Virus record (IMG/VR): IMGVR_UViG_2565956720_000001
DNA length: 22,730 bases
Source: a virus
Taxonomy: Duplodnaviria; Heunggongvirae; Uroviricota; Caudoviricetes
Strand: one strand, 5' to 3'
The notes under the pieces were generated by a model. That model was not told the DNA's origin. It saw only the letters and a program-made list of their open reading frames with translations, and did no database searches. Shown here one piece after another: positions 1 to 21,563 of the stretch; within the stretch, counting starts at the first letter, position 1, and each line of letters starts with the position of its first letter. Made by a program: the position numbers and the translations under genes.

Positions 1-170
1 ACTCACTGCTGATGAATCTGCTGAACCAGTTACAGGACGACGGGCACGACGTATCGGGCGCGGCGGCGGAGCTGACCACCATGTTCTGCTACATCGTCGG
101 TGTGAGCAAATGCCTGCGTGATATCCAGACACACGCAGAGTACATCAATGACAAGGCAGGGTTCTTCTGA
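1..170 (+). CDS. 3' end of an antirepressor-like gene whose 5' part lies outside the window (…SLLMNLLNQLQDDGHDVSGAAAELTTMFCYIVGVSKCLRDIQTHAEYINDKAGFF*)
   Basis: Open frame (phase starting at nt 3) from the window edge to TGA at 168-170. The 55 encoded residues are identical to the C-terminus of the 947..1891 antirepressor on the other strand; the DNA differs at 6 positions, all synonymous. Confidence 0.6.
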   Translation, partial: SLLMNLLNQLQDDGHDVSGAAAELTTMFCYIVGVSKCLRDIQTHAEYINDKAGFF

Positions 171-214
171 CGGGCGGCGGCACATGGATGTGCCTTTAAA
201 TAATTCTGTACAGA

Positions 215-243
215 TTGCAGACCGGGGGTGAATAGCGTACTAT
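215..243 (+). promoter_or_regulatory. Candidate sigma70 promoter for the small membrane-peptide operon (TTGCAG -17 bp- TACTAT)
   Basis: -35-like TTGCAG at 215-220 and -10-like TACTAT at 238-243 with 17-bp spacing, about 40 bp upstream of the ATG at 284. Pattern match only. Confidence 0.3.
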
Positions 244-257
244 TACCTTAAAGGTAA
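243..257. promoter_or_regulatory. Palindrome TTACC-N5-GGTAA (copy 1), candidate operator overlapping the -10/+1 of the small operon
   Basis: TTACC (243-247), ttaaa, GGTAA (253-257); the same arms recur at 18387-18401 and 21549-21563. Confidence 0.4.
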
Positions 258-283
258 ACCATGTGTTTACATGAGGGGGAAAC

Positions 284-472
284 ATGGAAATCAACATCAT
301 TACATTGCTGAAGGCCATTATTGGCGGAGCGGGCTTAGGCTTTGCCCTACCAGGCGGATTATCTTTCCTGCTTCCTGCTTTTACTGTTACAGCTGGGATA
401 GCCTATGCATTTGCTGTAGCTGGTGCTGTTGCACTCCCTGCTATCTATGCCGCAAAGAAGTTAGCCAACTAA
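284..472 (+). CDS. 62-aa hydrophobic Gly/Ala-rich small membrane peptide (glycine-zipper-like); possible toxin or bacteriocin-like peptide
   Basis: ATG at 284 preceded by GAGGGGG (274-279). Product MEINIITLLKAIIGGAGLGFALPGGLSFLLPAFTVTAGIAYAFAVAGAVALPAIYAAKKLAN has GxxxG/GxxxA motifs and a basic C-terminus. TAA at 470-472 lies 1 nt before the next ATG. Confidence 0.55.
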   Translation: MEINIITLLKAIIGGAGLGFALPGGLSFLLPAFTVTAGIAYAFAVAGAVALPAIYAAKKLAN

Positions 473-473
473 A

Positions 474-806
474 ATGCCTGATTTATCTTGGCTTGCGCCC
501 AGAGATGCACAGCAATTGACAAGGTTTTATTTCATACTGTGCATTGCTTATCTTGCTGTTCATCTGATATGGGATGCCGTTTGCAAAGATACGCCTCCTT
601 TTTCTTTGGATAAGTTGCAATACAAGATGAATGAGGTTTATTCATCATCTACTTTTGCAACCAGCGCATTCTTCATTGTTATTCTGTTCGATATGAAGAA
701 TCCACTGAGAACTTCAGATGCTTTCATATTCCCATTAATTATTGCTGCTCTAACTGGCTTTATGATCTCATTATCAGCAATAGTGCCAAAGAAAGTAAAT
801 AACTGA
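474..806 (+). CDS. 110-aa predicted 3-TM membrane protein, translationally coupled partner of the 62-aa peptide (candidate immunity/antitoxin)
   Basis: ATG at 474, one nt after the upstream stop; three hydrophobic segments (FYFILCIAYLAVHLIW, AFFIVILF, FIFPLIIAALTGFMISLSAIV); lower G+C than neighbours by eye; followed by a terminator. Confidence 0.55.
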   Translation: MPDLSWLAPRDAQQLTRFYFILCIAYLAVHLIWDAVCKDTPPFSLDKLQYKMNEVYSSSTFATSAFFIVILFDMKNPLRTSDAFIFPLIIAALTGFMISLSAIVPKKVNN

Positions 807-810
807 ATAA

Positions 811-832
811 GCCCGCTCTGCGGGCTTTTTTG
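811..832 (+). terminator. Rho-independent terminator of the small two-gene operon
   Basis: GCCCGC-TCT-GCGGGC hairpin (811-825) followed by TTTTTTG, 5 nt after the stop at 804-806. Confidence 0.7.
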
Positions 833-870
833 TGCCTGCAGATTCCCGCCCGGGTGGCGGTGGCATTCGT

Positions 871-895
871 TAAAAACAAGGCCGCGAAAGCGGCC
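871..895 (-). terminator. Rho-independent terminator downstream of the antirepressor gene (minus strand)
   Basis: GGCCGC-GAAA-GCGGCC hairpin (880-895); on the minus strand it is followed by TTGTTTTTA (reverse complement of 871-879). Confidence 0.55.
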
Positions 896-896
896 T

Positions 897-908
897 GTGA
901 CATGTCAC
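897..908. repeat. 12-bp perfect palindrome GTGACATGTCAC, copy 1
   Basis: Exact 12-mer, self-complementary; identical copies at 19377-19388 and 21642-21653. Here it abuts the antirepressor terminator hairpin. Confidence 0.8.
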
Positions 909-946
909 GATAGTTCCTTTTTGCACATCCCTGTGCCTCCGTTCTG

Positions 947-1891
947 TCAGAAGAACCCTGCCTTGTCATTGATGTACTCTGCGTGAGTCTGGATATCACG
1001 CAGGCATTTGCTCACACCAACGATGTAGCAGAACATGGTGGTCAGCTCCGCCGCCGCGCCCGATACGTCATGCCCGTCGTCCTGCAACTGATTCAGCAGA
1101 TTCATCAGCAATGAGTTCTCCGTCAGGCCGAGAACACCAGACGGCGAGTGAATCAGGCTGCGGTAGCCGGGCTTCAGCGGATAACCATAACATTTTGTCT
1201 GTGTTTTAATTGCCTCACGAAGCGCATCTAACATCTTGACTGCCACTTCATCATTCTCTGATGCAGATCCAGCAGGGAGATACTCCCCTTCAAGCGGAAC
1301 CCGAGCAACAAGAGACAACGCTTCGGCGAATTGATCTTCATCAATTTCTTTGTACGAACAGCCAAAATGAGATTTCAGTGACGACCACATGGTGATCATC
1401 GCCTTAGCCTGTTTTTCTTTTGGCAGAGACTGACCGCGACTCATGACGAGTTGTTTAATGGCTTCCTGCTGTTCAGTGGTTATTTTACCCGGCAACGCCT
1501 TTTTAGCTTTGCGTGGGTTAACCACATGGCCTTTAGTCCAGTACTCGTAGAGCACATCGTCACACTCTTCCTGATACTGGATTACCTTGTCGCGGATTTC
1601 AGGACGGACTTTGTTAGGGCTGATGGTTTGCAACCAGCCAGCAAGTTTGCGAAGTGCCAAACAAATAATCTCACGGCGCTGTTCATCCCCAGGAAGCTGC
1701 ATTGTGATTTTCACAATGCAGGTTTTAAACCGCTGCTTCATTTTCGTAAACTGTGAAGCCCAATCCATACCCATTCCCTCAACGATAGGCTTCATTGGTG
1801 TGTACGGTTCGCCGTTGTGATTGACAACATAAAGTTCTACGCCGTGGAATGGCACGTTGATAGTAGATACCGCTGTTGCTATACTCGTCAT
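947..1891 (-). CDS. ant: Phage antirepressor (Ant-like; P22 antirepressor-type N-terminal domain plus C-terminal domain)
   Basis: 314-aa ORF with ATG at 1891 and TGA at 947-949. N-terminal INVPFHGVELYVVNHNGEPYTPMKPIVEGMGMDW matches the antirepressor N-domain signature as remembered. Sits downstream of an Arc-like gene, as arc-ant does in P22 immI. Confidence 0.85.
   Translation of the reverse strand: MTSIATAVSTINVPFHGVELYVVNHNGEPYTPMKPIVEGMGMDWASQFTKMKQRFKTCIVKITMQLPGDEQRREIICLALRKLAGWLQTISPNKVRPEIRDKVIQYQEECDDVLYEYWTKGHVVNPRKAKKALPGKITTEQQEAIKQLVMSRGQSLPKEKQAKAMITMWSSLKSHFGCSYKEIDEDQFAEALSLVARVPLEGEYLPAGSASENDEVAVKMLDALREAIKTQTKCYGYPLKPGYRSLIHSPSGVLGLTENSLLMNLLNQLQDDGHDVSGAAAELTTMFCYIVGVSKCLRDIQTHAEYINDKAGFF
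1857..1885 (+). promoter_or_regulatory. Candidate promoter for a Sar-like antisense RNA (TTGATA -17 bp- TATACT), inside the 5' end of ant on the opposite strand
   Basis: TTGATA at 1857-1862 and TATACT at 1880-1885 with 17-bp spacer; predicted start about 1892, immediately antisense to the ant ribosome-binding region. Confidence 0.35.
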
Positions 1892-1967
1892 GTCGTTAAT
1901 TCCTATACGTAGTTTTACGATACTGAAGCCCTGACGGTCTGGCCACCGTTGGGCTTCGCTGTTTTAT
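1892..1967 (+). ncRNA. sar: Candidate Sar-like antisense RNA complementary to the ant translation-initiation region (about 75 nt)
   Basis: Promoter at 1857-1885; hairpin GAAGCCC…GGGCTTC (1925-1957, inner stem ACGGT/ACCGT) followed by GCTGTTTTAT on the plus strand only. Same layout as the P22 sar RNA between arc and ant. Inferred, not experimentally supported. Confidence 0.35.
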
Positions 1968-2131
1968 GCCACGCTATTCTTCTCACCAGTGAGTCCATAC
2001 ACTTTCCTCAGCTGATAGATAATCTCTGTATTGAACTTTCGGCATTCTTTTTCGCCATTTCTTTCAATAGCTAACTTCACATCGTCCGGAAAACGAACTC
2101 GTCGTTGACACATCTCTTTTGCTTTTTGCAT
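1964..2131 (-). CDS. arc: Arc-like ribbon-helix-helix repressor (55 aa)
   Basis: Start re-placed at ATG 2131 (AAGGAG 7 nt upstream); the track's longer start has no ribosome-binding site. Product MQKAKEMCQRRVRFPDDVKLAIERNGEKECRKFNTEIIYQLRKVYGLTGEKNSVA follows the Arc pattern (R-x-P-x-x-V…NG…N-x-E-I-Y-Q). Directly upstream of ant on the same strand. Confidence 0.65.
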   Translation of the reverse strand: MQKAKEMCQRRVRFPDDVKLAIERNGEKECRKFNTEIIYQLRKVYGLTGEKNSVA

Positions 2132-2146
2132 TTCATATCTCCTTAG

Positions 2147-2214
2147 CCCCACCGTGGGGCAAAACAATTGTCACACCGTGCGTCATTGATGTCAAGCACA
2201 CGGTGAGGCATACT
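2147..2214. promoter_or_regulatory. Divergent, overlapping promoter/operator region between the arc-like and mnt-like genes
   Basis: Minus strand: TTGACA (reverse complement of 2191-2196), 17 bp, GACAAT, reading toward arc. Plus strand: TTGATG (2186-2191), 17 bp, CATACT (2209-2214), reading toward mnt. Palindrome GCCCCAC-C-GTGGGGC at 2147-2161; half-site CACCGTG at 2151-2157 and 2173-2179, inverted as CACGGTG at 2199-2205. Confidence 0.4.
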
Positions 2215-2251
2215 TCAATCATTGCAAGTAACTCAATATTTGGTGAAGAAC

Positions 2252-2683
2252 ATGAGCAGAGAAGATCCACAACTAAGGATCAGACTTCCCGTTGAAGTAA
2301 AAGAAAAAATAGAAATTTCTGCAAAAGCCAATAAGCGATCAATGAACGCTGAAATAGTACAACGTCTTGACACCAGCTTTCTGAAAGATATTCATGAAGA
2401 TGACGTAATTTCTGCTTATGAAGCAAAAATTATTGCAAACAATGCACGGCATGAAATATCAAATATTATTTTCAAAAGAACCTTTAATGAAATTAATAAG
2501 AAAATAACACTTGGACATACAAGTTTTTATATAAACCTTAATGACCTTGAACTGGAATCACTTGCAGATAATGATTACCAGATCATCTTTGAAAAAACAT
2601 TTAATAAGCTCAATGAACTAGGTTACATCATCTGTGAAAACTCATGGGATGCAGATGGTTTTGGAATTGAAATACCTGAATAG
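2252..2683 (+). CDS. mnt: Mnt-like ribbon-helix-helix repressor with an about 95-aa C-terminal extension of unknown function (143 aa)
   Basis: ATG at 2252 with GGTGA 5-6 nt upstream (the track start at 2222 is TTG). N-terminus MSREDPQLRIRLPVEVKEKIEISAKANKRSMNAEIVQRL aligns with remembered P22 Mnt (MARDDPHFNFRMPMEVREKLKFRAEANGRSMNSELLQIV). Roughly one-third G+C by eye. Confidence 0.8.
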   Translation: MSREDPQLRIRLPVEVKEKIEISAKANKRSMNAEIVQRLDTSFLKDIHEDDVISAYEAKIIANNARHEISNIIFKRTFNEINKKITLGHTSFYINLNDLELESLADNDYQIIFEKTFNKLNELGYIICENSWDADGFGIEIPE

Positions 2684-2694
2684 GAAGAACAAAA

Positions 2695-2720
2695 GGCGTG
2701 TACATATTACACGTCTTTAA
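2695..2720 (+). terminator. Candidate intrinsic terminator after the mnt-like gene
   Basis: GGCGTGTA-CATAT-TACACGTC hairpin followed by TTTAA; moderate T-tract. Confidence 0.35.
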
Positions 2721-2773
2721 TACAATTGAAAAACGCCACATTACTGATGTATGTTACAACAAGGAGCGATATT

Positions 2774-3337
2774 TTGAAAACCATATCTATATTAAAGGTT
2801 GCATTAGGCGTCGCTATTATTTTGACTCTCTCAATATTGTTTTATTTTTACCACAAAAAAACAGCTATTGCTCTTGATGGTCACGCGGCAAACTCATTTT
2901 TCTCAGAGTACATAGTGCCGCTATCAGGAAGCGGTATAACAAATAAATATACTGACTATGACATCAAATATGGAATTGATGATGGGGAGACTATTGTATT
3001 ACATGTAATCATTAAAAACCTAATGACAGTAAATAAAAATACAGACTTCAACGATAAAAATACAATACATCACAACAACAGCAAAACATTAATTTCTTAT
3101 AGTAGCAACATCTATACGGATAAATACCTAAAATACATCTCAGAAGATACAATAAAAGCAACCAGCGAAAAGTTAAAAAACATATATTGTGCATCCGGCA
3201 GTTTTCACAAATTATCGCCGCAAGAGCGTTTATTCTACGAAGCAAGAAAACAACGTAAGTCAATAATATTACATTATTATGCTGATTCAGGGGAGTCACT
3301 CATATTTAATATTGGGGTTTCCCCTGAATCATGCTAA
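2774..3337 (+). CDS. AT-rich signal-anchored/secreted protein of unknown function in the sieA-equivalent position (candidate superinfection-exclusion protein)
   Basis: ORF to TAA at 3335-3337. Best-supported start is TTG 2774, with AAGGAG (2761-2766) 7 nt upstream; alternatives are ATG 2747 (no ribosome-binding site) and the track's TTG 2726. N-terminus KTISILKVALGVAIILTLSILFYFYHKK is a signal anchor. Asn/Lys/Tyr-rich, low G+C. Confidence 0.6.
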   Translation: MKTISILKVALGVAIILTLSILFYFYHKKTAIALDGHAANSFFSEYIVPLSGSGITNKYTDYDIKYGIDDGETIVLHVIIKNLMTVNKNTDFNDKNTIHHNNSKTLISYSSNIYTDKYLKYISEDTIKATSEKLKNIYCASGSFHKLSPQERLFYEARKQRKSIILHYYADSGESLIFNIGVSPESC

Positions 3338-3348
3338 AGGCGTTTAAC

Positions 3349-6300
3349 TCACCGCATCACCGGATCCACCTGGTTTATTAGTGGCGCAATCCAGAACAGG
3401 TTATTGCCTGGTATCAGGGTTCGGACATTATGCACAATACGATCACCGGCATCACCATTCAACACTCCTGCGGTCACATCAATGATGCTATCCGCAAGAC
3501 CAAATGACGGTCCGAATAGAGATCCTACGAATCCACGACTGGCATACCTAGACTGTGTGCCAGTGCCAAATAAAGCCCCCAGCCCAACAGCACCACCAGT
3601 AGCCTTTTCAGCCATGTTGTTATATTCCATCAATGGCCCAAGAATACCGGATCTATCTATACCCTCAAGCACCAGCTTCTCTGGTGACCAGTCAACATTT
3701 TTCCCTTTCGATGCTTCTTTAAGCGCATAGACCAGTGAGCCAAGAGCAATCTGAAATGCAGTGCCATAATAAAATTGCGCAGTTCCTTCCTGTAGCCCAC
3801 CAAGTAGCGCACGGTTGTATGAAGCCGTTGTGAATGATTTAAACTGAAATATCGTTCGCCCCATTGGAGTACTCGCCCATAAAGGTGTGTCACCAATACC
3901 GGGGGTGATGATAGTGTTATTAACGTCTTTCAGAACCGCTGACTGGAATACTCCGGCAACGTACTGATCGTCCCATTTATCAAAGTTACCAATGTGCCAT
4001 CCATCAATTACCTCACCATGTTTCTCGAACTCACTGCGAATACGCGCAGCCATATTGTCGTTGATACCGAGTTTTGCCATGCGACGTGCAGAAAACGCAC
4101 CAGACAAAATACCGTCTGACGTGAGCATTCCGTTCATGGATTTGTTTATGTCATTAAATCGATCCATGAGTGTCAGCTTGCCGAAGGCATCAGTAATTCG
4201 CTCCATTCCTGCTTCGACTGCTGTTGTCCTGGAAGAACTGTCAACAAGATCACCAATTGCACGAGAACGTGAATGTAGTACAGTTTCCAATCCAATCCCC
4301 ATCTTCAACATCTCTTCTTTGCTGGCCTTAAATGCCGGTGATTGGGATATCTGAGAAGCATAGCCTTTCATGGTGTTACGGAAACCATTAACCATAACCC
4401 CTCTGGCCAGATCTGGAATAGCTGATACTGTCATTCCACCGAGTTTGGTCGTGAAGTTCACATCCCGCAGAAAAGCGCCAGCACGAACAAAAAACGAAGA
4501 CGGGTCATCAGGCATACCATATGTACCAACAAGACGATCGCGTAATGCTGTTATGTCTCTGAGATCATTTGCTCTTGATTTTGAAAGTCTGGACTGTTCT
4601 TTCCGTAATTCCTTTTCGTACTTTCGCATTAATGAATCGAGTTTACCCTGAGGAACAACTTCACCATTGCTCTCATAACGTGCTTTCAGATTTGCCACAC
4701 TTTCGTCATATTTCGCCTTTATTTTTTCAGGCACTTCCCGTAACAGACTGTCATATTCGTCTTCAATTAATTGCAGACGCTCAGCCATAGTTCGTTTGCC
4801 AAATGTTCTCGTCAACTCAATTTCTGCTGCCGCTTCACGGATATGACGTTGCAGCACGTAATTCACATCACTTTCGAGATAATCCCTGATAAGACTATCA
4901 GGCACATTTAATGTTCTTTCTTTCGTACTACCTGCGGCTTTTACAGAAAATACGCTGACAAAATCCTGTGGAACCTTAGCACCAGTAATTTTATTAATTA
5001 CGATATCCGCTGCAATTTCAGCATCCTCAGGATCCAGTGTTTTATTGCCTCTCGACCACCAGTCAACCAAAATACGTCGAAATTTATCGCGTTCACTGAT
5101 TATTTTTCCAACTTTATATATACGTGGGAAATAGCTTGCCTGACCTAATGCTTTCAGTTCTTCATCTGGCGGCAATAAACCAAGCTTTTGCATTTCAACT
5201 TTCACCCGATTTAATACAGTTCGCATCGCCTGCGCCGTTTCCTGAACAACAGGATTAGCATGAACATCACCGCTTCGCATCGCATTCCCAACCTGCTGAC
5301 GAAATGAATCAAAACTCATGTCACCACCATCAGCTTTATACTTTGCGTATGCCTGTTTATTTCCGACAACAACTGCAGCTTCTTCACGCTGCCATCCACG
5401 TGTACGGGTTTCTACAGCTATCGGTGTTTCAATCCCCCTTTCATTTCCTTTAAGGGTGAAATTATTTTCGGCTAACTCCAGCGTTGTTTTTCGCACTGTC
5501 TTTGACGGAGACTCCATTAACCTTGTCAAAGGAGTAAGATAGCTCCCTGCTTTCCATGCAGCCTTTCCAACCACCCCACCAGAAACAGGGGTTAAATCAT
5601 CCAGAGTCGCTGTATCAATTTTCATAGCACCAACACTACCACCATCGGAAAGCGAAGCGGCAGCCCTGTCAGTCGCTGATGTAATGCTCATATTATCAAG
5701 AGCATCAGCAACCTCACGTGTGGCTGCAGCCCGGACGGATGGCGAAAGCGCAACACCAGCACTGGCAAACACGCCGCTCATCATCGCACCCGCTGCAACG
5801 TGAGCGGCACTTTCACCCCATGAGCGTGTTATTTGCTGATTATTCAGTACAACCTCGCTTAATGCAGTACCGGCAGCACCAATCGCAATCTGTGAGCCAA
5901 TACGCGCCAGTGCCCCTCCTTGAGCACCGGGGATAAACATTGACGCAACAGTAACCGGATCCATTCCCGCAGCAATACTGGCAAGGGTTCCAACTACGCC
6001 AGCATCAGACAATAAACGTCTGTCTTCATTTTCATCATCTATCTGCTGCTTAATCCACGCCGTTTCCTCTGGCGATCGGGAATCTGCAAATTTCGCCCCC
6101 CAGTATTCATAACCGTGCAACTCATTTTTATCAGCATATGGGTTATAACCTTCGACCGGTTCAAACTGTCTGGCTGGGCGGAAAAAACCAGCCAGAATAT
6201 TGTTCTGTCGCATTGCAGCCCCCCATACGGAAGGCTCAGGTGGCAATGGCTCAGGATTAGCCCCTTCCGGAAGGGCAACATCAAACCCAGTTTGTTCCGG

Positions 6301-6363: not shown

Positions 6364-9080
6364 TATTTAGATCCCCACGAAAAGTAATCTTTAAATTTGT
6401 CCATACGTTCGTTATGCAGGCGCTGATACTGCTCATCCAGAGCGCGATGCTTGTCTTTGAAGTTTCGTATAGCCTGTCCACGCATAATTTCTTCCTGCTC
6501 GTACTGCTCCCGTTCCTGCTGCATTTTCTTATAAGGTTCCCAATCTGCTAGTGATGGTTCCCAACGCATAGGACGCCCATGTTTGTTATAAAACGGCTGG
6601 ACCCGATCGATGCCATTTTCATCCTTAGTTCTTACCATAATGGCGTAATCACCATTACGGGGTGTTAACACGTCAGGGGTTATGAATAATTCTCCATTAA
6701 TACGACTCTCAGGGGTTTTTGTCTCAACTACAGGAGCATTACCTGACGTGATCCCAAGCAACGTCGGACTGGTTGTTATAATCTCTTTGCGCTCACCGTA
6801 CATCAGCCGTTCTTTTTCAGCTTTCCACTGCGCCGCCTGCCAGCCTGACGGCCCATATTGATAAAGCGCCTCCGGTGCATATTTCATAAACTGTGCATCT
6901 CCGTTAACCTCGCTGATACTCCAGGTGCGGGCTATCTGCTGGTTGGTCATTTGCTTCGCTACGTCAGCGTTACCACCAGCAACGCGGTAGTTAATGTCAT
7001 ACAGCGTCTGATAGTCATTACGGAATCTAGCTGCTTCCGGCGTCTGGTCATCCGCAGAAGGATCCCAACGGAACCACTGCGCCATATTGCTGACAGCAGA
7101 ATTCATCGCCTTGCTGCGATCATTTTTGTACTCTTTTGAACTCTGCGTTGATGCCAATTGAGCTTTAAGAGCATCGGTCTGGTTGTATGTCAGGTTCTGC
7201 GCCTGCTCGATAGCCGCATCAGCAGACATGCCAGAATCAGTTAGTTGCTTAACAGTCAGATAAAAACCCTGCATATCCTTCGGCATATTTCCAATAGATG
7301 CATTGTCTGTTTCATATAACCGACTAAACAGCTCCGCTGCATTTTTAACCACTTCCTGATTACTGGATCGGGATACTGCTGAAAGCTGCGTGATGACCTG
7401 CGAAGGCATTATGCCAGTCTGAGCCACAAGCCGAACAACCCCATCATGAGTGGAGGCATCATTAATACGAAAGTTCTGCGCCATTTCTGTGTAATCAGCA
7501 GCTTTCTGCATTGACTTGTTGCTTGGGTCTAATTTTTCACCTATTGTCAGCGCCTCATTGAATCTGCGTGAATCCCGTTGCGCCTGAATTGCTTCATTTG
7601 ATCTCTGAAGCAATGCAGACAATTTTCCGTAAGCATCGAGTTTTAACGCATAGTGAGGATCGTTAACCTCAGGCTTCACTTTCTGCATTTCTTCTTGCTG
7701 CTGAGAAGGAGGCAAATACTGAATTGCCTGGAATATTCTCGCGTTATCAATCGCTATATCCAGTTGATTGATTATTTTATCTGCGTTTTTTCCATACCCC
7801 CTGATGATGGTCTCCTGAGCCGGTATATAATCTGGAACCTCACCGTTATATAGCTGGGCCATGGTGTTATTAATAGCTGGCTCAAGCTGTTCTAATATTA
7901 ACTTCCTTTGCTTTTCTATCTGACTATTAGCAAGGTTATCTATTTGATAAATAGTCAGCGGATCCATTCCAGTTTTATTTTTTCTATATCGGGAAAGCCA
8001 CCCTTGTGTTTCTGATGGAAGATTTCGGATAAATTCTTCTTCTGATATTTCACCTTTACGTGGATCACCGACTTTGGCGATCAGTTTATCCACGTTACCC
8101 ATCCCCCAGTTATATGCTGCTCCGGTCAATATTTCTGAGCCGTACTTACCATACAGTTGATTTACATAGTCACTGGCAAGCATTTCATGCTGTTGTTCGT
8201 CCGTAGGGTTGTATTCAACGCCACGCTTGGCCGCCAGTTCTTTCCCTGTGCCCGGCATTAACTGGTATTTCCCCTGGGCCCTCTCTCCAGAAGATGTTTT
8301 CGGTCCTTCAAGAATACTACCATCAGGATTAAAATGACGATCACCTGATTCAACAAGGCGTATGGCACGCATGTCCATGCCTACAGAATCATTTTTCTGA
8401 AACAGACCATTTAGCCATCCTTCCGGATTAGCAGCGGCATAATTCTTCGCCCGCATTTCTGTGGCACTGCGATCATCACTTTCTATTTCTTCCAGAATGC
8501 GTTCTTGTGACCATCCCCTGGCAGCTCCATATCTGGCAATGGCTACCATTCTGGAATTTCTGGCTAAAGTGGCAGTTTGCGGGTCATTCCAGGCATCCGC
8601 TTCATTTTGTATCCATAATTTTCTCGTTGCCTGATATTGCTCATCTTCATAGGCATTTGTCTGCCCTATCTCATGTCTGAGAACTCCAGTACTGAACTGA
8701 ATTTTCTGTGTTCTGGCTTGTTGCAAAAACATATTTCTTGCTGCTTCATCAGTCAATGAAGCAGCTATTTCTTCCACATCCTGATCAAATCCAGATATGT
8801 ACTCTTGCCCCTTACCAATCGCATTTTTGCCTTGTTGTGCATAAAAACCGGTTTGAGGGTTATAAAGACGTTCATTGCTGCGCTGATTAAGCTGAAGGAT
8901 GGCATCCTGAGACAATGCAACATTCGCTTTCTGCCTGGCTTCACCATATGCCACCGCATACTGATCTGCGACATTCGCCAGCACCTGACCTGCTTGAGGA
9001 ACATCGAAGGTCTGAAAACCACCGGTTTGCACACCACGACTTTGCACCTGGCGTCCGGATGTAGTAGGAACAACAGGCAT
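6363..9080 (-). CDS. Internal virion protein with a lytic transglycosylase (SLT) domain (905 aa)
   Basis: ATG at 9080 overlaps the upstream TGA (ATGA). Residues about 240-330 carry the SLT motifs: E-S (RLVESGDRHFNPDG), GKYQLMPGT, AAYNWGMG. Confidence 0.85.
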   Translation of the reverse strand: MPVVPTTSGRQVQSRGVQTGGFQTFDVPQAGQVLANVADQYAVAYGEARQKANVALSQDAILQLNQRSNERLYNPQTGFYAQQGKNAIGKGQEYISGFDQDVEEIAASLTDEAARNMFLQQARTQKIQFSTGVLRHEIGQTNAYEDEQYQATRKLWIQNEADAWNDPQTATLARNSRMVAIARYGAARGWSQERILEEIESDDRSATEMRAKNYAAANPEGWLNGLFQKNDSVGMDMRAIRLVESGDRHFNPDGSILEGPKTSSGERAQGKYQLMPGTGKELAAKRGVEYNPTDEQQHEMLASDYVNQLYGKYGSEILTGAAYNWGMGNVDKLIAKVGDPRKGEISEEEFIRNLPSETQGWLSRYRKNKTGMDPLTIYQIDNLANSQIEKQRKLILEQLEPAINNTMAQLYNGEVPDYIPAQETIIRGYGKNADKIINQLDIAIDNARIFQAIQYLPPSQQQEEMQKVKPEVNDPHYALKLDAYGKLSALLQRSNEAIQAQRDSRRFNEALTIGEKLDPSNKSMQKAADYTEMAQNFRINDASTHDGVVRLVAQTGIMPSQVITQLSAVSRSSNQEVVKNAAELFSRLYETDNASIGNMPKDMQGFYLTVKQLTDSGMSADAAIEQAQNLTYNQTDALKAQLASTQSSKEYKNDRSKAMNSAVSNMAQWFRWDPSADDQTPEAARFRNDYQTLYDINYRVAGGNADVAKQMTNQQIARTWSISEVNGDAQFMKYAPEALYQYGPSGWQAAQWKAEKERLMYGERKEIITTSPTLLGITSGNAPVVETKTPESRINGELFITPDVLTPRNGDYAIMVRTKDENGIDRVQPFYNKHGRPMRWEPSLADWEPYKKMQQEREQYEQEEIMRGQAIRNFKDKHRALDEQYQRLHNERMDKFKDYFSWGSK

Positions 9081-18296: not shown

Positions 18297-18386
18297 ATCA
18301 ATGACTCCGTACGCAATTAAATTATTACCAATTTAACCACATATGATTTATTTATCGTAGATAGTTGACATTTAACGCACAAATTA

Positions 18387-18401
18387 TTACCTTTCAGGTA
18401 A
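18387..18401. promoter_or_regulatory. Palindrome TTACC-N5-GGTAA (copy 2), about 20 bp after a TTGACA hexamer
   Basis: TTACC (18387-18391), tttca, GGTAA (18397-18401); TTGACA at 18365-18370. The direct repeat AAATTATTACC also occurs at 18319-18329. Confidence 0.4.
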
Positions 18402-18725
18402 CCAAAGAGTTCATTCCGGTTACTAACCTGACTGGCTTGTCGTTAAATTGAACAGGTGGAGTGAGCTTTTATTTTGAGCAGTACGGCGTATGGCACATGC
18501 GCCGATAGCGGTCTGGATACGTTTAAGGGGCACCCTCCCTTGCTCGGGCAAACGAACCAGGTAGCCGGAATGTGCAAGTCACCGTTGGTAGGATAGCGGA
18601 TTCAGGGACTCACCATCCTGGCGATTCGGTGTGACGCCTCGGAAGAGACGAGGGTACAACGATGAGAGCATTTATGGAGCCGCGACAAAGTGTGGCGCCT
18701 TAACAGGCTAAGTGCTCTCAGCGTT

Positions 18726-18802
18726 GTGGCATTAGCTCAGCTGGACAGAGCAACCGCCTTCTAAGCGGTTGGTCGCAGGTTCGAATCCTGCATGCCACGC
18801 CA
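18726..18802 (+). tRNA. tRNA-Arg (anticodon UCU, reads AGA), with encoded CCA
   Basis: Manually folded cloverleaf: acceptor GTGGCAT/ATGCCAC, D-stem GCTC/GAGC, anticodon stem ACCGC/GCGGT with loop CTTCTAA (anticodon TCT), variable loop TGGTC, T-arm GCAGG-TTCGAAT-CCTGC, discriminator G plus CCA. Confidence 0.9.
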
Positions 18803-20938: not shown

Positions 20939-21531
20939 TGATTACCATCCTGACGTTCTTTGAGTCGCTTCCTGGCTGCCGCTATGCGATCAGCAATTGT
21001 CACATTCACATTAACATCCAGGCGTTCTTTGAATGCGTTGACGTCGACGTGCTTACCAATCAGTTCGAGGTTCTTCACCTTGTCAGGCCATTTAATTTTT
21101 TTGAGGATTGTCTCTATCGAATCCTCGTTCATGTTCATGATGGTCGATGACAGATCAAAGCCACTAAGCGTAGTGCGCCAGATTTTCGGCCACTCGCGGA
21201 TTGGCTTAAGGCTCCCATCGTCGTTGAGGATATCAATCACGTCCATCTGGTCGATCTCCACCAGGCGCATGAGAACGTAATCGGCACTGACGCGCATTCG
21301 TTTGTTGCGCTCCTCCATCAACTCGGCAATCCGTTTTTGAATGCGTTCATCGCGCATCATGACACTGGCTTTAACTGCCGCTGTATTTGGGGAGAATCCT
21401 GCGTTAATCGCTGCCTGAGTCTGGTTTTCAGGCGTTTTGATGTATGACTGGCAATAAGCCTCCTGCATTGCGGTTAGTGGCTTAAATTGCGTTGATTTGC
21501 GTTTATAGGTTTTAGGTTCAGCAGGCATCAT
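20935..21531 (-). CDS. Terminase small subunit (about 198 aa)
   Basis: Start placed at ATG 21531 (tandem ATG ATG preceded by AGGGTGG). The track's longer ORF begins with TTG at 21609 and would include a terminator hairpin. Basic, helical N-terminus; immediately precedes and overlaps the large subunit gene. Confidence 0.75.
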   Translation of the reverse strand: MMPAEPKTYKRKSTQFKPLTAMQEAYCQSYIKTPENQTQAAINAGFSPNTAAVKASVMMRDERIQKRIAELMEERNKRMRVSADYVLMRLVEIDQMDVIDILNDDGSLKPIREWPKIWRTTLSGFDLSSTIMNMNEDSIETILKKIKWPDKVKNLELIGKHVDVNAFKERLDVNVNVTIADRIAAARKRLKERQDGNQ

Positions 21532-21548
21532 AACCACCCTGGTAATTG

Positions 21549-21563
21549 TTACCGTTGTGGTAA
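21549..21563. promoter_or_regulatory. Palindrome TTACC-N5-GGTAA (copy 3), with an extra GGTAA half-site at 21541-21545, just upstream of the small terminase start
   Basis: GGTAA (21541-21545), ttg, TTACC (21549-21553), gttgt, GGTAA (21559-21563); 18 bp from the terS ATG. Could be an operator or a terminase-recognition element. Confidence 0.4.

Follow-up and report, generated by a model that had tools for sequence, protein, structure and literature searches.

The 22,730-nucleotide (nt) sequence IMGVR_UViG_2565956720_000001 of the IMG/VR collection, a stretch of viral DNA that is called the window throughout, begins with two inverted, nearly identical arms that enclose a cassette of small genes (positions 1 to 1116). 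Our analysis points to the conclusion, which we consider likely, that this repeat consists of a single protein domain which two convergent antirepressor genes, lying side by side, have in common, that the arms exchange sequence, and that the accessory-gene slot between them is independent of the repeat. According to the mechanism that we propose, a domain of the type found in the antirepressor (Ant) of phage SPC32H would have been fused to a BRO-N domain in the left gene and to a P22-type Ant N-terminal domain in the right gene, the latter belonging to an immI unit. The two fused copies would stay nearly identical through purifying selection combined with exchange, which would take place within genomes as well as between co-resident related prophages, through gene conversion or crossover and presumably by RecA-type recombination. 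The 776 base pairs (bp) between the arms would represent an accessory-gene expression slot of the left gene's unit. The repeat as such would be incidental, two genes with the same domain having ended up adjacent, with occasional inversion where the arms are longer.

Extent and coding content of the inverted repeat

A repeat search placed the arms at positions 1-171 and 946-1116, with a length of 171 nt, 96% complementarity (165 of 171 bases matching), and a spacing of 774 nt. The runner-up within positions 1-3000 comprised only 26 nt at 73%, and the 171-nt repeat is therefore far beyond chance. The near-identical inverted arms described in an earlier note on this DNA were thus recovered. Direct comparison of the arms located the six differences at positions 6, 26, 32, 47, 98, and 131. 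From both arms the same 55 amino acids (SLLMNLL...KAGFF) followed by a stop codon are read, and all six differences are synonymous. The earlier note had described all of them as third-position changes, but only five are; the sixth is a first-position change between two leucine codons (CTG/TTG).

The homology between the arms stops one base past the stop codon. At its other end the left arm is truncated by the start of the window, while the module continues on the right strand to about position 1180 (core), with weaker similarity to about position 1219. In relatives with a complete left gene, the whole repeat measures 270-292 nt at 90-91%, and its core comprises 234 nt (78 codons including the stop) with an identity of approximately 95-97%.

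Domain composition of the antirepressor genes

The right arm lies inside ant, a complete gene whose 314-amino-acid product matched a single Pfam family, PF10547, with 150 bits at a cut-off of 30.7 (Table 1). Its PHROG matches were phrog_524/245 ("anti-repressor Ant") and, for the C-terminal module, phrog_450/15539. When the module was compared by phmmer with the proteins of the PDB, the sole solved-structure match was chain 5D50_E ("Anti-repressor protein", 86 amino acids, E 1.4e-13), Ant residues 233-309 being aligned to chain residues 3-79. SPC32H Ant was reported to bind two Rep dimers as a tetramer (PMC9638917), and its gene is, according to a review, controlled by LexA (PMC7380047). Because the module matches SPC32H Ant, which is reported to bind repressor, the repeat is, on the evidence of homology, a predicted repressor-binding domain of about 78 amino acids that is written on both strands and homologous to SPC32H Ant.

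The left gene was identified by means of relatives in which the 3′ end of the gene matches window positions 1-170 at 97% identity. In these it specifies a protein of 218-236 amino acids carrying the C-terminal module, with a BRO-N domain in most cases (228-236 amino acids); five related loci (L001-L005) encode an intact left gene with Bro-N (PF02498, 76.7 bits). The last ~100 amino acids of the BRO-N protein are 83% identical to the window Ant, and the two proteins are unrelated before that point. These domain and PHROG matches support the earlier proposal of two convergent antirepressor-type genes with a common C-terminal module. In the related Uetakevirus ZX5, overexpression of a BRO-N-type anti-repressor, a different allele from that of the window, was reported to cut lysogeny (PMC9782041).

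Relatives of the window contain a third copy of the module in the form of a free-standing open reading frame (ORF) of 85 amino acids (phrog_450, E 9e-48), which shares 88% identity with the ant annotated in SPC32H. Both phrog_450 and phrog_15539 match Ant, the BRO-N protein, and the 85-amino-acid ORF alike. In seven of seven relatives (L001-L005, L007, L008) a perfect LexA box, TACTGTATAAATATACAGTT, was found about 22 nt upstream of the start of the 85-amino-acid gene. It is the sole CTGT-N8-ACAG box in each of these relatives and does not occur at the two fused copies; likewise, no such box was present in positions 1-3000 of the window. The phage would thus possess three antirepressors with related effector domains under three controls responding to differing signals, and both fusions are predicted to act on the resident repressor.

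In many prophage Ants (L030-L086), residues 1-224 match the window Ant at 78-92% identity and are followed by an unrelated C-terminus. As these Ants diverge after residue 224, the join between the N-terminal part of Ant and the module is a recurrent domain-swap point. In phage phiV10 (L095 5555-6231), p23 (a Bro-N protein) and p22 (30 amino acids) together correspond to a frameshifted gene for BRO-N plus module; the last 45 residues of this module are 100% identical to the window module but lie in another frame.

Organization of the cassette between the arms

The leader of the cassette was defined by aligning the first 150 nt past the BRO-N stop codon from 20 loci with different cargo (Table 1). 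The slot is ordered as leader, variable ORFs, terminator, usually a gene for a 53-amino-acid signal-peptide protein, and the terminator for ant. Among 21 loci at least nine types of cargo occupy the same position, in all of them co-directional with the BRO-N gene. Only a YafO-type toxin (with a small upstream ORF), DUF4760, and DUF2335 were recognized above the Pfam cut-off, and none of the cargo proteins tested in PADLOC matched a known defence family. The terminator that closes the variable part in the window also follows unrelated cargo in other loci. The 53-amino-acid gene (WP_000708858 / phrog_14503, "membrane associated protein") is present in full length in most relatives, and its deletion (window 826-873) shows the same junction, TTTTTTGTG / CTGCGGATTCCC, in L003, L006, L008, L016, and L021, which contain unrelated cargo.

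The first of the two cargo ORFs of the window has 20 homologues in a large protein collection, all from Enterobacterales and all annotated as "hypothetical". Both ORFs travel together at an identity of at least 99% in 19 E. coli genomes, and their right-hand neighbour varies, being ant, a second BRO-N gene, or virion genes without an antirepressor. Klebsiella prophages have the same slot without the right-hand ant, and in Serratia the cargo pair occurs in a context without tailspike or antirepressor genes. Since the cargo persists in phages without a right arm, the slot is independent of the inverted repeat and belongs to the unit of the BRO-N gene. The two small membrane proteins of the window may have a role at the lysogen's cell envelope, such as excluding other phages.

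These data also bear on the possibility, which we regard as rather unlikely although it deserves serious consideration, that the arms are mainly homology anchors through which phages swap cargo, by double crossovers located in both arms. Variable cargo between conserved coding flanks is what such swapping would leave, and recombination within the arms is abundant (see below). However, conservation extends past the arms into the leader of ~88 nt and the shared terminator, only the ORFs being variable, and identical cargo is found with a BRO or structural gene on the right as well as in the Klebsiella prophages. Moreover, the deletion junction of the 53-amino-acid gene that is common to unrelated cargo argues for crossovers inside the slot.

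A microcin with its immunity protein was considered for the pair of 62 and 110 amino acids, as the start of the former (MEINIITLLKAIIGG) is partly double-glycine-like. This candidate was rejected, since there was no exporter gene and no family match and the consensus was only partial. In Serratia fonticola (L195-L197), a pair of 61 and 104 amino acids was located near HxlR/ABM genes, in L196 beside a GMP-synthase (guaA-like) gene.

The leader contains a palindrome of the type TTACC-N5-GGTAA, which occurs at four sites in the window compared to 0.29 expected, a number reached in none of 100 shuffled sequences. It looks like a candidate operator for a phage regulator. Such sites were observed just past -10-like hexamers upstream of the 85-amino-acid gene, the BRO-N gene, and the cargo; another is located 14 nt after a TTGACA hexamer at position 18367.

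Sequence exchange between the arms

For the comparison of the arms, the last 170 nt were taken from the window and from 20 related loci, and the 234-nt core was analyzed in 19 loci (38 arms). Over the last 170 nt, left and right arms of the same genome showed a mean identity of 96.8%, and the corresponding values between genomes were 96.4% (left-left), 96.7% (right-right), and 96.4% (left-right). In the core, 42 sites were variable, of which 24 were polymorphic in both arm sets, nine were private to each set, and none was fixed. All four gametes were present at 223 of 561 pairs of informative sites, and haplotype blocks were common to the left arms of some genomes and the right arms of others. 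In ant, the 60 nt that adjoin the module on its upstream side were 100% identical in 19 of 19 loci, whereas the module itself was only ~96% identical. A module that is more variable than the surrounding ant sequence is expected if variants enter from the paralogous copy. At 38 of the 42 variable sites the variation was exclusively synonymous, which bears out the purifying selection postulated in the earlier note. Taken together, the arms show continuing exchange and purifying selection; the pattern is seen at the population level, and the mechanism is inferred from it. Much of the mixing probably occurs between related (co-resident) prophages.

A few direct traces of conversion within single genomes were also obtained. 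In locus L013, two private alleles were each present in both of its own arms (P about 0.05). Locus L088, from the complete genome of E. coli CUVET21-H2, contains two convergent BRO-N genes (4511-5500 and 6566-7568) that form an inverted repeat of ~1 kilobase (kb), and the last ~450 nt of its arms are 100% identical.

A one-off recent duplication or domain capture, after which the copies evolved independently and stayed alike through constraint on the protein only, would account for the exclusively synonymous differences in the window and for the near invariance of the protein, of which only six variants were present among the 38 arms. Fixed synonymous differences would then be expected, however, whereas none of the 42 sites was fixed and more than half of them were polymorphic in both sets. 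The crossing of the same haplotype blocks between left and right arms and the elevated variability of the module relative to the adjacent ant sequence also speak against this explanation, which we consider improbable.

Orientation of the cassette

All loci with both arms and the 85-amino-acid gene were classified by the orientation of the cassette. When the far-side gene was ant, 32 loci were canonical and none was flipped. When it was a BRO gene, eight loci were canonical and three were flipped (L088, L104, L185), one of which (L088) is derived from a complete genome. The repeat is 540-1040 nt long in these BRO/BRO loci versus 234-290 nt in the ant/BRO class. The pattern fits an occasional, homology-dependent inversion that is likelier with longer arms and not a programmed switch. 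The earlier suggestion that the arms drive module exchange or inversion of the cassette was therefore correct with respect to exchange, which is documented by the many cargo types and the shared polymorphisms, but not with respect to inversion, as none of the 32 ant/BRO loci was flipped. With the tailspike gene as the reference, the segment enclosed by the arms of L088 has the opposite orientation to that of L087, L089, and L091. The relation of L087 to L088 is not that of a simple inversion: by windowed comparison, one of the two flanking BRO genes was found to differ over its N-terminal part, and a single event does not suffice.

None of 5,426 complete E. coli genomes matched an artificial flipped junction (BRO-N joined to the reversed right end of the cargo) over its full length, the native control query reaching at least 80% coverage in only 33 genomes, as the N-terminal part of ant has several alleles, and being a poor denominator for that reason. 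Six matches at 78-80% coverage were rejected as inversions, because all of them were BRO/BRO loci in which a second BRO-N gene in normal orientation takes the place of ant. Searches of IMG/VR with gapped junction patterns returned 82 contigs with the native left junction (BRO...leader), 15 with the native right junction (ant...53-amino-acid side), eight with BRO...53-amino-acid side, and one with the flipped combination ant...leader. The single contig with the flipped combination is a TL-2011b-like draft (IMGVR_UViG_2740892230_000001; L010 / L189) that contains a reversed YafO cargo and has flanks 99.97% identical to those of TL-2011b. In this contig ant, leader, YafO, and the 53-amino-acid gene are co-directional. 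The changeover falls within 59 nt over which the two arms agree completely, and the sequence breaks off precisely at the second arm. A real crossover and a switch of the assembly path explain this contig equally well.

The inverted duplication might be a selected device, in which conversion keeps two differently regulated antirepressors (the BRO-N fusion and the P22-type fusion under Mnt/Arc/sar) matched to one repressor and rare crossovers re-wire the cassette from the transcription unit of one antirepressor to that of the other. The contig would in that case represent a real minority state, but we give little credence to this idea. It is very unlikely that the arms form a recombinational switch by which the 776-bp segment inverts appreciably and toggles which antirepressor transcript precedes the cargo. 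The flipped BRO/BRO loci and the reversed cargo of L010 are compatible with such a switch, but the ant/BRO class with its 234-nt arms is uniformly canonical, the full-length flipped junction was absent from the complete E. coli genomes, and for L010, a draft, a mis-oriented assembly path is an equally good explanation. Furthermore, no recombinase or invertase was found among the ORFs of window positions 1-3400 or among the annotated features of the islands of relatives, all of which specify antirepressors, Arc-family proteins, cargo, or hypothetical proteins, and the retention of cargo in phages without a right arm is difficult to reconcile with a switch. Inverted repeats of such length can mislead short-read assemblers, but an assembly artefact or a chimeric join of two oppositely oriented prophages, and with it the junction of two phage genomes considered in the earlier note, is hardly credible, as the same layout recurs inside single prophages in many complete E. 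coli chromosomes and in phage TL-2011b, and the virion genes run on without interruption to the right of the region.

The explanation that we prefer, namely, one domain in two adjacent convergent genes whose arms exchange sequence next to an independent slot, has to be weighed against several observations. The identity of the two arms within a genome was not significantly above that of shuffled pairings (P = 0.22), and homogenization within a genome is therefore episodic at most. Between the free-standing copy and the module the identity is only ~44%, and the three copies may therefore not all have the same repressor target. The N-terminus of the left gene lies outside the window, and its assignment to BRO-N rests on relatives. 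In the leader a weak promoter-like sequence (TTGCAG-17-TACTAT) agrees with the consensus at 7 of 12 positions and was not reported by the consensus scan, leaving the promoter as an inferred element. Finally, both cargo ORFs of the window are without a match in Pfam, NCBIfam, or PADLOC.

Table 1. Features of the region. Positions refer to the window unless a related locus is named.
Feature	Position	Strand	Basis or remark
3′ end of left antirepressor gene, 55 codons plus stop (left arm)	1..170	+	truncated by window start; relatives
Conserved leader of cargo slot, ~88 nt after BRO-N stop	171..258	+	alignment of 20 loci with different cargo
Leader hairpin GGCACA-TGGA-TGTGCC	179-194	+	sequence
Leader palindrome TTACCTTAAAGGTAA	243-257	+	alignment, enrichment
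TTACC-N5-GGTAA sites	243-257, 18387-18401, 21531-21545, 21549-21563; L001 2811, 3191, 4242
Cargo ORF 1, 62-amino-acid glycine/alanine-rich hydrophobic protein	284..472	+	phrog_13406 (unknown function)
Cargo ORF 2, 110 amino acids, about three hydrophobic segments	474..806	+	phrog_36716
Conserved intrinsic terminator closing the variable part, AAGCCCGC-TCT-GCGGGCTT plus T run	809..832	+	8-pair stem, 6 GC pairs
Remnant of 53-amino-acid signal-peptide gene, last 10 codons plus stop (DSRPGGGGIR*)	841..873	+	alignment of cargo right ends
Intrinsic terminator downstream of ant	879..896	-	7-pair stem, 6 GC pairs, T run
ant, 314 amino acids: P22_AR_N (residues 12-123), middle region, SPC32H-Ant-like module (residues ~233-314)	947..1891	-	PF10547, PHROG, PDB
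Right arm of repeat, inside ant	947-1116	-	for extension see text
sar antisense RNA gene, between arc and ant, antisense to 5′ end of ant message	1893..1960	+	Rfam RF00262
arc-like small repressor gene, 55 amino acids (ATG at 2131)	1964..2131	-	phrog_228 "Arc-like repressor", E 2.3e-5
Pant-like promoter, TTGACA-17-GACAAT	2195-2167	-	promoter scan
mnt-like gene, 143 amino acids, Arc-family DNA-binding protein, divergent from arc-ant	2252..2683	+	PF03869 Arc, 54.3 bits (153-amino-acid ORF)
LexA box TACTGTATAAATATACAGTT	L001 2865-2880		left of window, next to tailspike gene; pattern search

Phage backbone and position of the tailspike gene

The portal protein of the window is 100% identical to that of phiv142-3, 99.6% identical to that of TL-2011b, and 80.7% identical to that of epsilon15, and the window phage was therefore placed in the genus Uetakevirus. 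The assumption of a P22-type phage could not be maintained, as the backbone differs from that of P22 in being epsilon15-like and only the mnt-arc-sar-ant unit is of the P22 type. Parts of the region were contained in ~1,100 of the 5,426 complete E. coli genomes, many of which had several matching places.

In relatives including TL-2011b the gene order is tailspike (-), 85-amino-acid ORF (+), BRO-N (+), variable genes (+), ant (-), arc-like (-), mnt-like (+), a 187-amino-acid ORF (+), and virion genes (-). The tailspike gene, which the earlier note had reported as absent from the window and possibly replaced by the cassette, is present in every relative, and the comparison places it ~1.3 kb to the left of the first base of the window, beyond the BRO-N gene and the 85-amino-acid gene. 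Within Uetakevirus, the island that separates the tailspike gene from the last virion gene enlarges stepwise in the series SPC32H, phiV10, phiv142-3, and TL-2011b. In SPC32H it contains ant only; phiV10 adds the frameshifted BRO-module gene; phiv142-3 has the 85-amino-acid gene, a module-bearing gene, and cargo; and in TL-2011b and the window the immI unit is added.

The immI unit

The sar gene was detected as a full-length match to RF00262 with 45.2 bits, compared to a gathering score of 43. On the plus strand around it, a promoter-like site (1857-1885) and a terminator-like site (1936-1955) were present. It is a P22-type regulatory RNA inside an epsilon15-like prophage. The arc-like gene is annotated as "Arc-like repressor" in TL-2011b, and the mnt-like gene as "Arc family DNA-binding protein" in relatives. 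A palindrome, GCCCCACCGTGGGGC, at positions 2146-2160 lies between the Pant-like promoter and the start of arc and is placed much like the mnt operator in P22, a likeness seen in the sequence alone.

Relation to known systems

Each element of the region is of a known kind, comprising domain-shuffled antirepressors, a P22-type immI unit, and a moron-like slot. The similarity to SPC32H concerns the module, which aligns with Ant of the Rep-Ant complex (5D50) over 77 residues, the backbone of the same genus, and the 85-amino-acid gene of relatives, which is likewise next to the tailspike gene and equipped with a LexA box. In contrast to SPC32H, the domain in the window forms the C-terminal part of larger proteins (231 and 314 amino acids with BRO-N and P22_AR_N N-termini), is only ~40-45% identical to the free-standing form, and is without a LexA box in the interval searched. 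With P22 immI the window shares mnt-like, arc-like, sar, and ant with P22_AR_N, in the same order and orientation and adjoining the virion genes. However, there was no match to the C-terminal domain of P22 Ant, the window Ant ending in the SPC32H-type module instead, and between ant and the tailspike gene an opposite-strand unit is located that consists of the 85-amino-acid gene, the BRO-N gene, and cargo.

Morons and accessory hotspots, which occur in lambdoid, P2, and P4-type elements, consist of variable genes that are equipped with signals of their own and flanked by conserved genes of the phage. The slot resembles them in its fixed position, its conserved flanks, its own terminator, and its unrelated gene sets with toxin-like and membrane proteins, but it differs by being situated between two genes that share an inverted domain. 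The G segment of Mu and the C segment of P1 are site-specific invertible phage segments served by the Gin and Cin invertases. They have in common with the cassette that a short segment lies within inverted repeats in gene 3′ ends near the tail-fibre region. In contrast to these segments, the window region has no invertase gene, and its arms are coding homology of 234 nt rather than short crossover sites. An inversion would change neither protein, as the arms encode the same sequence, and the orientation is fixed in 32 of 32 loci.

In the literature searched we found no description of this Uetakevirus slot, of a chimeric Ant composed of P22_AR_N and an SPC32H-type module, or of a shared variant pool. 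The region provides an example of one repressor-binding domain placed under several controls in a temperate phage (a LexA box, the Mnt/Arc/sar circuit, and a BRO-N fusion) and of paralogous domain copies in one phage genome that draw on a single pool of variants. In addition, E. coli and Klebsiella prophages of the epsilon15-like type are shown to contain a compact slot for accessory genes, the contents of which (YafO-type toxins, DUF4760, DUF2335, and several unnamed membrane proteins) are candidates for lysogen-protecting functions.

Other features of the prophage

An ORF of 203 amino acids (window 2726-3337, plus strand; phrog_8033, unknown function) is located between the mnt-like gene and the gene for a 1004-amino-acid internal virion protein. 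Its location is roughly that of sieA in P22, and its sole other match was a non-significant, TIR-like one in PADLOC (E 0.006). Farther to the right, ~330 nt of non-coding sequence (18400-18725) in which no Rfam family was matched precede a tRNA-Arg gene (anticodon TCT) that lies inside the prophage at positions 18726-18802 on the plus strand.

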